Position numbers and translations under genes: made by a program. The notes beneath the pieces were generated by a model. That model was given only the letters and a program-made list of their open reading frames with translations. It searched no databases and was not told where the DNA came from. Positions 42,013 to 45,913 of a stretch of 64,000 nt of DNA are shown here, piece after piece. The stretch's first letter is position 1, and each line of letters starts with the position of its first letter. The DNA comes from Sphingobacteriia bacterium (GTDB lineage Bacteria; Bacteroidota; Bacteroidia; Chitinophagales; Chitinophagaceae): NCBI GenBank assembly GCA_031369485.1, contig JANMOT010000043.1, forward strand, positions 1,595 to 65,594, given 5' to 3'.

Positions 42013-42089
42013 GGCTGCGTAGCTCAACTGAATAGAGCATCTGACTACGGATCAGAAGGTTTTAGGTTTGAATCCTAACGCGGTCACCA
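42013..42089 (+). tRNA. tRNA-Arg (anticodon ACG), CCA encoded
   Basis: Hand-folded cloverleaf. Acceptor GGCTGCG/CGCGGTC (two G-U pairs). D arm GCTC-AACTGAATA-GAGC. Anticodon arm TCTGA-CTACGGA-TCAGA. Variable loop AGGTT. T arm TTAGG-TTTGAAT-CCTAA. Discriminator A followed by CCA. Confidence 0.9.
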
Positions 42090-42098
42090 CACAGGACT

Positions 42099-42129
42099 GA
42101 GCAGCATTTTTGCTGCTCTTTTCTTTTTT
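42099..42129 (+). terminator. intrinsic terminator after tRNA-Arg
   Basis: 8-bp stem GAGCAGCA/TGCTGCTC with a TTTT loop, followed by TTTTCTTTTTT. Confidence 0.8.
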
Positions 42130-42130
42130 A

Positions 42131-42549
42131 CAATCGCTGAAACCATTGCCACCATTGCATAGCAGGTCAAGTACCTCACTCGGCTGCATGGTTTGAAAAG
42201 TATTGTTATTATAAACCAGTTTTTCAGGGAATATCAAACCAAGCATTTTCTGCCGATTTTCTATGTTAGCAGCCCGGTAATATTGGTCCATATTACTCTG
42301 TAGGGATAAACCATACCGATAGTATTCCTGAAATCCGCTTTCAGCGGCTTTCAGTTCCGCAATCTGGCTTCTCAGTTCAGTACACTCTCTTGACAGACTT
42401 TCCTTTATTCGTTTATATTTGATGAAGAAATTGTTTTTAATAACCTTAACCAACAAGCTGTCAAAACAATGCGTAAGGTTAAGGCAGATATAAGTAAGAT
42501 TATTTTGATGATGAAGGCTTACTGCTTCAAGCGAAAAGAAGTAGAGCAA
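42131..42549 (-). pseudogene. C-terminal remnant of a large serine recombinase
   Basis: The segment KYKRIKESL...RSQIAELK...YYRYGLSLQSNMDQYYRAANIENRQKMLGLIFPEKLVYNNNTFQTMQPSEVLDLL resembles the C-terminal tail of Bacteroidota recombinase-family proteins. The resolvase catalytic and recombinase domains are absent. The track ORF runs on through the terminator and tRNA, which cannot be coding. Confidence 0.55.
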
Positions 42550-42580: not shown

Positions 42581-43003
42581 ATGGCCAAAGCAAAGAAAGA
42601 AGTTAGTGTTAGAAAATCAGGATACAACACAGGAACGGCAAGTGAGTTTTTAGTACTGAGCAATCTTTACAGGTTAGGAGTAAATGCTTTTATTAGCTTG
42701 GGTAATAAAAAAAGTATTGACCTTATTATCAAAGCAAAAAATGGTTCATCTCTATCGGTTGATGTAAAGTCAGTGCAGGGATATAGTTCCATTGTGGTTA
42801 ATAATGTGAAGGCAGCAGCAAATCATTTCATTGTGGTGGTAGTGTATAGAAACAAGTTTGCTGACCCAACGGTATTACCTGATTTCTACATTATCCCTTC
42901 TGATAATGTTGCTGGCCTGTCGGAGAACTATAAGGGTCAGTTGAGGCTTTTAAAGGGCAGCATTGTCAGCTATCAAGACAAATGGAAGCCCTTACAGTTA
43001 TAA
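42581..43003 (+). CDS. small PD-(D/E)xK nuclease-fold protein (PDDEXK_5-like)
   Basis: GTASEFLVLSNLYRLGVNAFISLGNKKSIDLIIKAKNGSSLSVDVKS gives the E ... D ... (D/E)xK order, with a core beta-strand pattern like small group-I-intron-type endonucleases. The assignment rests on motifs only. Confidence 0.55.
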   Translation: MAKAKKEVSVRKSGYNTGTASEFLVLSNLYRLGVNAFISLGNKKSIDLIIKAKNGSSLSVDVKSVQGYSSIVVNNVKAAANHFIVVVVYRNKFADPTVLPDFYIIPSDNVAGLSENYKGQLRLLKGSIVSYQDKWKPLQL

Positions 43004-43019
43004 TTAAGATTGTAAATAA

Positions 43020-43691
43020 ATGAGTGCAACCATAGCAAAAGCAAAGGATATTTTAACAGGCAGAATTTTTCATATAGATAATGTTGATAAAACTATAAAG
43101 GCAGAATTTGAATGTTGTGAATGCAAGCAAAAACTATCACCGGTTAAAACAGAAGTAAGGGGCAAAGACTGGCATTTCAGACATCTGCAAACTACTGATA
43201 TAGCAAAATGCAGAAGTACAGCCTTACATGATTTTGCAGTACAGATATTAATGGAAAATGCAGCTATCTCAATTTCAAAGAAATTGCAAATAGCTTACAG
43301 TGACCCAAGAAAGGAAATTACTGTTTTTGGCAAGCGGTCGGATGTAACAGTTAAATATGAAAATGAAGATGTACACTTTGAGGTTTTTGTAACCCATGAT
43401 TTGGACAATGAAAAGATTGGTATTTACAAAGACAATAAAGTAAAATGTGTGAGAATTGATTTGAGTGAACCGGTGTTGTTAACGGCATCCCCGGAGAAAA
43501 TTAAAGAGGCGGTTCTAAATCAGTATAAAAACAAAACGGTTGTTTATTGGCAGGATGAAATAGTAAAGCCTCACGAATCAAATGAGCCGGATTTTGGATT
43601 TAAACATTTACTATTATTAGCAGGGGCATTTATCGGGTTAAGGTTTCTTTACAATCGTTTCTTTAAGCCAAAAAGACGAAATTTGCGGTAG
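43020..43691 (+). CDS. CoiA-like nuclease-family protein with C-terminal membrane anchor
   Basis: FECCECKQKL...DWHFRH (Cys pair plus HFxH), then RSDVTV...VHFEVFV, as in the CoiA-like family. C-terminal hydrophobic helix HLLLLAGAFIGLRFLY and basic tail KPKRRNLR. Starts 16 nt after the preceding gene. Confidence 0.5.
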   Translation: MSATIAKAKDILTGRIFHIDNVDKTIKAEFECCECKQKLSPVKTEVRGKDWHFRHLQTTDIAKCRSTALHDFAVQILMENAAISISKKLQIAYSDPRKEITVFGKRSDVTVKYENEDVHFEVFVTHDLDNEKIGIYKDNKVKCVRIDLSEPVLLTASPEKIKEAVLNQYKNKTVVYWQDEIVKPHESNEPDFGFKHLLLLAGAFIGLRFLYNRFFKPKRRNLR

Positions 43692-44120
43692 TTGTTAAAT
43701 ATAAATAGATATGTCCAGTCTTTACATAGATGAAAGTTACCACTTGGAACATGATGGGAAGCCTGTTATGTGTATTGGCTGGAATAAAGGGCAAAAAACC
43801 CCCACTTCGTAAGTGAGGAACGCAACTTTAGGCATTGCGGTTGAGTGGACAAGCCACCTACCAGTGCCTTTACTCTTTGAGTAATGCATCACAAATATAT
43901 GGGTTGTTTTGAGAAAACGAAGTCAATTCCGCAATCTAAATAGTTTTTTGTATAATCCGGTGAAGCTGACCACCAATCCGGCTATTGTGACCTAAAAACA
44001 ATTTTAGATAGAATAATGAACCCTGCATCCCATGCCACGGGGGAAACTATGTATGCAAAAGAATTAGTTGTAAGTTGCTAAAAATTATCATCCAAAAGCT
44101 GTTTTAACGTATCTAAATCG

Positions 44121-44196
44121 TTATCAATTATTTGTATTTACTTAGGTATTCGAATTTGCAATATTTACTTTTTCAAGTATTGATTATCAATTATTT
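44121..44196 (+). repeat. paired direct repeats upstream of the HipA-like kinase gene
   Basis: The 13-mer TTATCAATTATTT occurs at 44121-44133 and 44184-44196. The 9-mer TATTTACTT occurs at 44135-44143 and 44162-44170. The order is A-B ... B-A, and the block ends 75 nt before the ATG at 44271. Confidence 0.6.
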
Positions 44197-44270
44197 AAAC
44201 CACCTGAGTAGTTACAAAGAATTAAAAACATTTTTAGATGCTAAAAAAACAGCAGCATAATTATTAATAA

Positions 44271-45080
44271 ATGATAAAAAACGTACAATCCATAGAGCAG
44301 GTAGAAAAGGTATTTGATACAGGCGATAAGCCCATATTAATACACTGTACCGACTTGGAATTTTATGTAAGCAAATACAACAGCACAGCAGGTACGGCAA
44401 ACTTATTGTTTAGAGAATTTATGACTTCATCCTTTTTAAAAATTTGGGGTTTACAAGTACCCGATTTTGCAATTGTTGCTTTACAACCACATCATAACCC
44501 TGCAAATGGCAGGTATATAAACAATGCCATGCCCTGCTTTGGTTCTATGTACAATAATGAATACAGGGAGTTAGATGCTTTTATAAACGAAGTTTCGCCA
44601 GCACAACGGCAAAGATTTAATACCACTTTCGATTTATTAAAAATAACCCTGTTTGATTATTGGGTTTCCAACGAAGATAGAAACCACAATAATTATAATT
44701 TGATGCTTAAAATGGAAGATAAGAGCTATAAATTTGTACCAATAGACGGTGGAGCCGTATTTCACACAGGCAATCAAAATAGGGAAAATTATACACTTTC
44801 CATAGAAGAAAGCCTTATTTCCAGCCCATTATTTCAAAACCTCATCATTGCAGAAACCAGTTTTAACGCCGAAATAATAGCAAATCTTAAAGAAATCTAC
44901 TACTTTTGCATTCAGAGTTGTAAGTCTCAATTACAAAATATAATTAACGATGTTCCAGAAGAGTGGCAAATAAACAAACCAGCAGAAGCAATAAATTTAG
45001 ATGTTTTTCTATTTAACACTAATTGGATAGAAGAATGTTGGACAACTTTTTTAGAGCATTTACACAACTCAGGCATTTAA
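44271..45080 (+). CDS. HipA-like serine/threonine kinase family protein
   Basis: Catalytic-loop-like DYWVSNEDRNHNNYNLM, followed by FVPIDGG (DxG) and N-lobe LEFYVSKY. 269 aa. Confidence 0.7.
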   Translation: MIKNVQSIEQVEKVFDTGDKPILIHCTDLEFYVSKYNSTAGTANLLFREFMTSSFLKIWGLQVPDFAIVALQPHHNPANGRYINNAMPCFGSMYNNEYRELDAFINEVSPAQRQRFNTTFDLLKITLFDYWVSNEDRNHNNYNLMLKMEDKSYKFVPIDGGAVFHTGNQNRENYTLSIEESLISSPLFQNLIIAETSFNAEIIANLKEIYYFCIQSCKSQLQNIINDVPEEWQINKPAEAINLDVFLFNTNWIEECWTTFLEHLHNSGI

Positions 45081-45082
45081 TA

Positions 45083-45913
45083 ATGACAACTCAATATAGT
45101 ATATTATCGGTTTTAATACGACCAGAAATACAGGAAAAAATCACTATTGGTTTTTTGCTAATAAATGGTAACGAGGTATTTTTTGATTACTCTAAGCACA
45201 AATTAGGAGTAGCCAAAAATCTATTATCAGCCAATGCCTATAATTCATTAAAAGATGCCATTCACAATATTAACGCTACAGCCAATAATTATAAACATAA
45301 TACAACAAGCGATACACCCAGTAAAATAAATTCTTTTTCTGTAACATACATTGAATACCTAAGCAGATATAACAATAATATTTTATCTTTTACTGCTTTA
45401 AAATCTATTGAAGTATCAGCCAATTTAGAAGTATTTACAAAGCTGTTTCATAAGTTTATTGATAATACAATTGCACCAGTAAAGAAAACTTTCGTTTCCG
45501 AAATTCAGAAATTTAAAAAAGAAAAGAAGGTTGAATTATCTAAGCATTTTAATATTGATAAGAAAATAACACCCAACGAAATCGAAGGCCTTATTGTTCC
45601 TGTATCAGTTACTTTAATTGGTCAAAATGAAGTTCCCGCATTTGTACAAACTTTAGATTTAGAACGTAGTACATCTTATTTAATAAAAGACATTTCGGAA
45701 ATACTTTTTTTACAAAAAGCATTTGTTAGTACCCATTTACAAAGTGTGGCAATGGCTATTACAAACGAACCTAATAAAAATAAGTACCCAGAGCAACATG
45801 ATATTTGGGAGCAACTACGCAATACTAAAGACATTTTGCATTACGATATTAGCGATGCAGATGCAGTAATAGAATATGCCGTTGAGCATAATGTTCATCC
45901 ATTCATAAAGTAA
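45083..45913 (+). CDS. DUF3037-like protein
   Basis: The ATG at 45083 lies 2 nt after the kinase stop. The N-terminus YSILSVLIRPEIQEKITIGFLLINGNEVFF matches my recollection of the DUF3037 opening (YSVLRYVPD...GEFVNVGVVL). The track's longer start (45023) would overlap the kinase gene by 58 nt. Confidence 0.65.
   Translation: MTTQYSILSVLIRPEIQEKITIGFLLINGNEVFFDYSKHKLGVAKNLLSANAYNSLKDAIHNINATANNYKHNTTSDTPSKINSFSVTYIEYLSRYNNNILSFTALKSIEVSANLEVFTKLFHKFIDNTIAPVKKTFVSEIQKFKKEKKVELSKHFNIDKKITPNEIEGLIVPVSVTLIGQNEVPAFVQTLDLERSTSYLIKDISEILFLQKAFVSTHLQSVAMAITNEPNKNKYPEQHDIWEQLRNTKDILHYDISDADAVIEYAVEHNVHPFIK

Follow-up and report, generated by a model that had tools for sequence, protein, structure and literature searches.

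The question raised by positions 44,271 to 45,913 of a 64,000-nucleotide stretch of Sphingobacteriia bacterium DNA (Chitinophagaceae; contig JANMOT010000043.1; the whole stretch is called the window below) is what a small HipA-like kinase gene and the gene directly behind it do together, and whether they make up a new system. A first-pass annotation, made from the sequence alone, had proposed that the two genes form a conflict module built around a kinase, of toxin-antitoxin (TA) or abortive-infection type, in which the second protein, assigned to DUF3037, serves as antidote, sensor or substrate, and had named the pair its top candidate for an undescribed system. The proposed module, with the DUF3037 protein as antidote, agrees with experiments on homologous systems and with the comparative data given here, and we consider it likely that the two genes form one operon and a TA-like anti-phage module of the HipA_2/DUF3037 family (PDC-M66; DS-6/HipAD; the pair linked to Retron-Sda1). 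The claim of novelty did not hold. The combination of a HipA-like protein and a DUF3037 protein is already known as PADLOC candidate PDC-M66 (models PDLC04766 and PDLC04767; PMC12548924) and has been validated both as DS-6/HipAD and as the Sda1-linked pair. The locus is a divergent Bacteroidota member of this known family and no new category of system. Distinctive here, as judged by sequence comparison, are a partner protein that stays under the DUF3037 and PDC-M66B thresholds and a conserved C-terminal domain whose sequence shows no relation to the one in DS-6B.

The catalytic loop of the HipA/PI3-4-kinase type that had been read in the first gene was confirmed by profile searches. The product matches Pfam family PF20613 (HipA_2) with an E-value of 2.8e-16 and 59.9 bits against a gathering cut-off of 27, residues 17-246 aligning to positions 11-220 of the 240-position model, and PF20613 was present in 31 out of 31 kinase homologues found. 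Other HipA-family Pfam models (HipA_N, HipA_C) gave no match to the kinase at E <= 1. A PADLOC scan returned PDC-M66A (6e-8; relatives reach 9e-14) and, more weakly, PDC-M03A, and the kinase also matches the phage protein family phrog_3162 (1.2e-21). An alignment of 23 kinase sequences with identities down to 31% was used to define invariant positions. Within the catalytic loop DYWVSNEDRNHNNYN, residues D129, W131, N134, D136, R137, N141 and N143 are invariant, as are K35 (YVSKY), which had been proposed as the N-lobe lysine, and D159 (PID). The latter lies in the stretch FVPIDGG, which had been taken for a DxG metal-binding element; the aspartate of this element was retained in all sequences and the glycines were not, and since both glycines of PIDGG vary, D159 is better described as a conserved Mg-binding Asp than as part of a DxG motif. 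The AlphaFold2 model of the kinase (predicted local distance difference test score (pLDDT) 89, predicted template modelling score (pTM) 0.90) also bore out the kinase fold that had been supposed: Foldseek matched it with a probability of 1.0 and E-values of 3e-6 to 2e-4 to PI4KII-alpha, CtkA (Helicobacter), HipA and HipT-like kinases, including Shewanella HipA 4pu5 and the HipT-like structures 7wcf/7vkc. A search of PDB sequences with the kinase family profile gave weak matches to HipT(Lp) and HipA chains. On the evidence of sequence and structural model, the first gene encodes a compact, catalytically complete Ser/Thr kinase of the HipA/PI3-4-kinase fold. A tblastn search with the kinase gave no match in phage records and a single match among plasmids, at L061 4962-6398 (NZ_CP123585.1, from Alisedimentitalea scapharcae). 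The gene found there codes for a remote 'HipA family kinase' (26% identity), and its partner position is taken by an IS6 transposase and not by a DUF3037 gene.

In the AlphaFold2 model of the partner protein (pLDDT 83.9), two domains (residues 1-125 and 140-276) are connected by a linker of low confidence at residues 131-136. Searches with the window protein against Pfam, NCBIfam and PADLOC gave nothing usable and no DUF3037 match even at E <= 1; 89 close homologues lack a precomputed Pfam domain, and only two UniRef names read 'DUF3037 domain-containing'. A profile of the partner family collected 691 representative clusters (50% identity) at E <= 1e-3. When 38 members of the family were scanned singly, 28 of them matched PF11236 (DUF3037) below threshold (best E 1.2e-4), any other family being matched by at most two of the 38, and distant representatives aligned to the whole 118-position PF11236 model with 15.7-17.3 bits (cut-off 22.6). 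The family was further compared by hhalign with DS-6B, the DUF3037 protein of the E. coli DS-6 system (DS-6A and DS-6B sequences were taken from the supplement of PMC13092281). A profile of the 38 sequences gave a weak match to the single DS-6B sequence (24.5%, E 8e-4). A profile of 210 partner sequences matched an alignment of six DS-6B relatives with a probability of 90.7% (E 1.3e-6, 259 colinear columns), and the N-terminal domain compared with the DUF3037 N-terminal domain of DS-6B reached 93.6% (E 2.1e-7), reversed and column-shuffled controls staying at E >= 0.037. The link to DUF3037 is convincing only with the 210-sequence profile and the DS-6B family alignment. As the N-terminal domains score against each other and the C-terminal domains do not (E 0.27), the similarity to DS-6B sits in the N-terminal domains. 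The N-terminal domain of the partner is, at profile level only, a divergent DUF3037 domain and a remote homologue of that of DS-6B. The first-pass assignment to DUF3037, made without a direct Pfam match, was in this sense a correct guess at a remote relationship. When PDB sequences were searched with the partner profile, the matches were at chance level, and a homologue search that started from an alignment of the N-terminal domain brought up short fragments of the partner family and nothing else, none of them annotated with PF11236. Short proteins of 130-170 amino acids that consist of the N-terminal domain only (including P0269-P0279) are common in the database.

Conservation of the pair was examined in 60 related loci obtained by a pattern-plus-tblastn scan with one genome per species. 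All but one of these loci belong to Bacteroidota (59/60), including Chitinophagaceae, Prolixibacteraceae, Sphingobacteriaceae, Capnocytophaga, Myroides and Saprospiraceae; the exception is L048 (Azovibrio). The adjacency of the two genes seen in the window proved to be conserved in these genomes, a partner homologue lying directly 3' of the kinase on the same strand in 58 of the 60 loci. The two others are L020, which is cut by a contig end, and L059, a truncated kinase remnant whose locus ends soon after. In 40 of the 53 loci where it could be measured, the spacing between kinase stop and partner start was -4 to +8 nucleotides (nt), and kinase and partner diverge together (Mantel test, Pearson r 0.86, reached in 0 of 999 permutations). 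An all-against-all comparison of open reading frames (ORFs) in the flanks of the 60 loci did not reveal a third gene that recurs, with at most three loci sharing a cluster, and no homologue of the helix-turn-helix (HTH) protein of Retron-Sda1 was found near any copy of the pair. Adjacency, tight spacing, co-divergence and the lack of a recurrent third gene indicate that the conserved unit consists of two genes. Throughout the Bacteroidota these are inherited together, and their surroundings vary and are in some cases those of restriction-modification (R-M) systems.

The junction of the two genes in the window, read directly from the sequence as ...ATT TAA TA ATG, confirmed the start codon that had been proposed for the partner. 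Since 37 homologues begin at the same position (MxTQYSILS...), the partner starts at ATG 45083 (MTTQYSILS...). The TAA-TA-ATG arrangement suggests translational coupling of kinase and partner in one operon. A longer partner ORF starting at TTG 45023, which appeared in a mechanical ORF list, was unsupported by the 37 homologues. The absence of flanking HTH or HipS-like genes, reported by the first-pass annotation, was also found here: the spacer upstream of the kinase (43692-44270) contains no HTH or HipB-like ORF, just ORFs of up to 51 amino acids and one antisense ORF of 62 amino acids, and no HipS-like ORF was found to flank the pair in the window ORF list or among the spacer ORFs.

Among the closest described systems is DS-6 of E. 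coli, which has been validated as anti-phage and renamed HipAD (PMC13092281); according to that paper, HipAD was found independently by Brenes & Laub 2025. The catalytic mutant D139A of the DS-6 kinase loses defence, and the AlphaFold3 model of the A:B complex has an interface predicted template modelling score (ipTM) of 0.76-0.79 (PMC13092281). DS-6A (WP_000389051.1) matches PF20613 (9.7e-77) and PDC-M66A (6e-15), as does the window kinase. The family profile of the latter aligns to DS-6A over 206 columns (hhalign 98.2%, E 5.5e-14), with D136 placed on D139, and the window kinase is clearly homologous to DS-6A. In both systems the kinase gene comes first and the DUF3037 gene second, the two genes are tightly coupled (by a 4-nt overlap in DS-6 relatives and with a 2-nt gap in the window), the lengths are similar (249+275 amino acids in DS-6 and 269+276 in the window), and the DUF3037 N-terminal domains can be aligned. 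The two differ in host phylum (Pseudomonadota and Bacteroidota, respectively) and in kinase sequence, with an identity of about 22%. Furthermore, DS-6B (WP_000210934.1) matches both Pfam DUF3037 (7.6e-24) and PDC-M66B (3.8e-16), whereas the window partner misses both, and the C-terminus of DS-6B is DUF1829-like by HHpred, whereas the C-terminal domain of the window partner is unclassified. With respect to PDC-M66, the window kinase matches PDC-M66A, and the partner of this clade lies outside the current PDC-M66B model.

A second point of comparison is the Retron-Sda1 operon of Sphingobacterium daejeonense, in which deletion of the HipA gene abolishes defence against phage Bas51, deletion of the DUF3037 gene is toxic and the retron parts are dispensable (PMC12548924). 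Like the window pair, the Sda1 pair is from Bacteroidota and has the HipA-like gene before the DUF3037 gene, and it acts as a stand-alone defence system. Unlike the window pair, it is accompanied by an upstream Xre-type HTH gene and by a downstream retron non-coding RNA and reverse transcriptase, and the C-terminus of its DUF3037 protein resembles a DNA-binding protein of retron III-A1 according to the authors (PMC12548924). The C-termini of DUF3037 proteins differ among the described systems (PMC12548924), and therefore a DS-6B-like C-terminal domain is probably no defining feature of the family. Because in homologues the kinase is needed for defence and deletion of the DUF3037 gene is toxic, the DUF3037 protein is a recognisable antitoxin. 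Two statements of the first-pass annotation are thereby corrected, namely that the kinase has no recognisable antitoxin partner and that DUF3037 has no assigned function, the latter being outdated by the work on DS-6/HipAD and Sda1. The preprint of Payne et al. 2024 on 'embedded defences' contains no HipA/DUF3037 system.

The likeness to canonical HipBA and HipBST lies in the kinase fold, the chemistry of the catalytic loop and the TA logic. Canonical HipA is about 440 amino acids long, whereas the window kinase has 269 and lacks the HipA N-terminal subdomain. HipBA has an upstream HipB HTH gene and HipBST has HipS and HipB, whereas no such ORF flanks the window pair and no upstream gene recurs in the 60 loci. 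The antitoxin of the window pair is encoded downstream and has a fold unrelated to HipS, no HipS or HipA N-subdomain being among the top 50 PDB Foldseek matches.

By analogy with the validated homologues, the DUF3037 protein would bind the kinase in the uninfected cell and keep it inactive. Phage infection would release or activate the kinase, and the active kinase would phosphorylate an essential host (or phage) target, leading to growth arrest and an aborted infection; GltX and TrpS are precedents for such targets from HipA and HipT. More tentatively, the DUF3037 N-terminal domain would be the neutralising part, and the family-specific C-terminal domain may be an accessory sensor or a DNA-binding or autoregulatory module.

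Broken and partial copies are in line with this assignment of roles. By an automatic test both genes are full-length in 44 of the 60 loci, and L054 also has a full-length partner. A broken kinase together with an intact partner, away from contig ends, was found in six loci (L045, L048, L050, L056, L058 and L060), and an intact kinase without a DUF3037 N-terminal domain in none of the 60. The kinase is more often the broken gene of the pair in related genomes, partner damage being seen for example in L024 and L038. Where the partner is damaged or short (L024, L030, L038 and L052), all four loci still have the N-terminal domain as a single open frame, and in L030 and L052 the partner next to the intact kinase consists of the N-terminal domain only. 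The asymmetry between broken kinases and intact partners is what a toxin (kinase) and an antitoxin (DUF3037 domain) predict. As L030 and L052 carry N-domain-only partners, the C-terminal domain is dispensable for coexistence with the kinase, which suggests that it is not needed for neutralisation. An orphan gene for the N-terminal domain only, with no adjacent kinase, was observed in Niastella populi (L077 4001-4423, LWBP01000210.1), near a SLFN/AlbA_2-HATPase gene.

The surroundings of the related loci include defence genes. Among 131 nearest-neighbour ORFs from 39 loci were four type I specificity subunits (HsdS) and four type I methyltransferases. In L010 (87-6174) and L018 (4895-11236) the pair is flanked by hsdS and hsdR, in L015 (3331-11056) by a HerA-like gene and hsdR, and in L005 (2688-7648) it follows an Eco57I/MmeI-type enzyme. 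An association with defence genes is more evident in these loci than in the window, and it concerns a minority of the related loci. The defence-island setting that had been described for the window itself was upheld in part: a tRNA gene and a low G+C content are present, whereas the 'nuclease' ORFs remained sub-threshold and the 'recombinase remnant' had no family match. The tRNA-Arg(ACG) gene (42013-42089, + strand) is the only tRNA gene of the window and lies 2.2 kb from the kinase/partner segment, and the 2-kb segment containing the module has the lowest G+C content of the window (0.32 and 0.30, compared to about 0.37-0.39). The related loci are better context evidence than the window, whose own defence-island setting is weak.

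Several observations weigh against the interpretation as an anti-phage TA module of the HipA_2/DUF3037 family or limit how far it reaches. Toxicity, neutralisation and defence are extrapolated to this locus from homologues with an identity of about 22% (kinase) or lower (partner). The partner stays below the gathering score of Pfam DUF3037, and the PADLOC model PDC-M66B matched neither it (E <= 1) nor ten diverse relatives (E <= 0.1); a PADLOC run would probably miss this locus. The C-terminal domain has no detectable similarity to that of DS-6B, and therefore regulation or triggering may differ between the two. A 47-residue N-terminal fragment of the Sda1 kinase did not match the family profile of the window kinase, and Sda1 may therefore belong to another branch. 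The counts of broken genes are small and come largely from metagenome-assembled genomes, in which frameshifts are possibly assembly errors, and recognisable defence genes stand beside a minority of the related loci only, most loci being without them.

The last of these points is shared by the reading that we regard as the most serious alternative, if an unlikely one: a classical addiction or persistence TA that stabilises the island next to tRNA-Arg or brings about stress dormancy and has no phage-defence role in the host. Biochemically it would work in the same way, persistence is what canonical HipBA is known for, and a low-G+C islet beside a tRNA-Arg gene would suit it. However, phage protection was observed for both homologous systems put to the test (PMC13092281, PMC12548924), several copies of the pair are located inside type I R-M operons, and kinase and partner both have phage matches; moreover, such a function and a role in defence are not mutually exclusive. 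Far less can be said for a signalling pair without any role in conflict, in which the partner would be substrate or regulator of a housekeeping kinase. Kinase-plus-partner operons can be regulatory, but a patchy distribution, unrelated flanks in the 60 loci, frequent pseudogenisation, atypical G+C, R-M-embedded copies and clear homology to validated defence systems make this reading highly improbable.

A third possibility turns on the C-terminal domain of the partner: the roles could be reversed, with the kinase as sensor or activator and a nuclease-like C-terminal domain as the effector that is switched on by phosphorylation. The domain is as conserved as the rest of the protein (mean identity 34%, compared to 35% for the N-terminal domain). 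All of the 210 partner sequences (100%) have G180 and N182, and D192, E229, P230, H239 and W242 are retained in 84-99%; the polar residues N182, D192, E229 and H239 thus reach 84-100%. None of the 38 members scanned had a Pfam family for this domain, and DUF1829 gave no match in them at E <= 10. The best structural matches, though weak, are restriction-endonuclease-like folds, which dominate the Foldseek results against PDB (EcoO109I at 4.7e-2, BspD6I, and BsoBI with probability 0.85). These matches are not significant, the best E-value being 0.047, and judging from model and conservation the conserved residues appear to lie off the canonical PD-(D/E)XK positions. Loss of the DUF3037 gene is toxic and not inactivating in homologues (PMC12548924), N-domain-only partners occur beside intact kinases (L030, L052), and loci in which the kinase is broken and the partner intact are common. 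We consider reversed roles very unlikely on these grounds, and a nuclease fold for the C-terminal domain is not claimed and is kept as a lead only. In the BFVD database, the uncharacterised phage proteins A0A516KTX2, A0A516KZK0 and A0A6J5NRF1 matched the partner model in Foldseek searches. Two of them, of 261 and 287 amino acids, cover the full two-domain model (8e-8 and 6e-7), and the third, of 125 amino acids, aligns over 132 columns (3.3e-6, TMt 0.72); weaker BFVD matches include endonucleases and DUF2726 proteins. DUF3037-like proteins are therefore also carried by phages, whether as defence cargo of prophages or, possibly, as anti-defence decoys.

The features of the module are collected in Table 1.

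Table 1. Features of the kinase/DUF3037 module and of its upstream spacer, in positions of the window.
Feature	Position	Strand	Remarks
Upstream non-coding spacer, 579 nt	43692..44270	+	operon promoter presumed inside
HipA_2-type Ser/Thr kinase gene, 269 amino acids, ATG start	44271..45080	+	predicted toxin/effector
Kinase key residues			K35; catalytic loop D129-N143; catalytic Asp D136; Mg-binding Asp D159
Junction TAA-TA-ATG	45078..45085	+	kinase stop 45078-45080, 2-nt spacer, partner start 45083
Partner gene, 276 amino acids + stop, two domains	45083..45913	+	predicted antitoxin/regulator
Partner N-terminal domain, residues 1-128, divergent DUF3037 domain	45083..45466	+	likely kinase-neutralising module
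Partner C-terminal domain, residues 140-276, conserved alpha/beta	45500..45910	+	pLDDT about 90

Upstream of the kinase no Bacteroidetes-type -7 element (TAnnTTTG) was found. Between 75 and 150 nt before the kinase start, two exact copies of a 13-nt direct repeat, TTATCAATTATTT, lie at a distance of 63 nt (44121-44133 and 44184-44196), and the 64-kb window has no further copies of the repeat. As a candidate operator for autoregulation it was rejected as not significant, since 24 of 100 shuffles gave at least two matches with at most one mismatch. Apart from the tRNA, no Rfam RNA was detected near the pair. The tRNA-Arg(ACG) gene is followed by a terminator-like hairpin (42099-42118), and a search for att-type direct repeats of its 3' end that could delimit an island gave nothing convincing. 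The 3' end of the tRNA gene is overlapped by an ORF on the minus strand (42052-42549, 165 amino acids), for which only weak coiled-coil-type matches and no Pfam, NCBIfam or PHROG match were obtained. Between the tRNA gene and the kinase module lies a second close gene pair (42581-43003 and 43020-43691, both on the + strand, separated by 16 nt). The first product (140 amino acids) matches phrog_29029 (4.6e-8) and, sub-threshold, PDDEXK_5 (0.057), and the second (223 amino acids) has a Cys-rich N-terminus, a match to DUF7830 under the cut-off (1.5e-4) and a C-terminal hydrophobic segment. The starts of the two genes have a 30-nt stretch in common with 70% identity. Possibly this gene pair is a further small module of mobile or defence type.

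The assignment to the HipA_2/DUF3037 family extends a validated anti-phage kinase system (HipAD/DS-6/PDC-M66) to a large, divergent clade that is found throughout the Bacteroidota. As the Pfam and PADLOC models half-detect this clade, annotation of defence systems in Bacteroidota undercounts it. Tentatively, and with some doubt on our side, the Bacteroidota clade could be a distinct HipA_2/DUF3037 subtype in which the different C-terminal domain, possibly of a nuclease-like fold, is a dedicated sensor, ligand-binding or enzymatic module; if so, this subtype would have a trigger or regulation that is not shared with E. coli HipAD. The N-domain-only partners beside intact kinases, the orphan partners beside dead kinases and the lack of any intact kinase without DUF3037 lead to a testable domain model for the family, in which the DUF3037 N-terminal domain would form the core of the antitoxin, and sensing or regulation would fall to the variable C-terminal domain.

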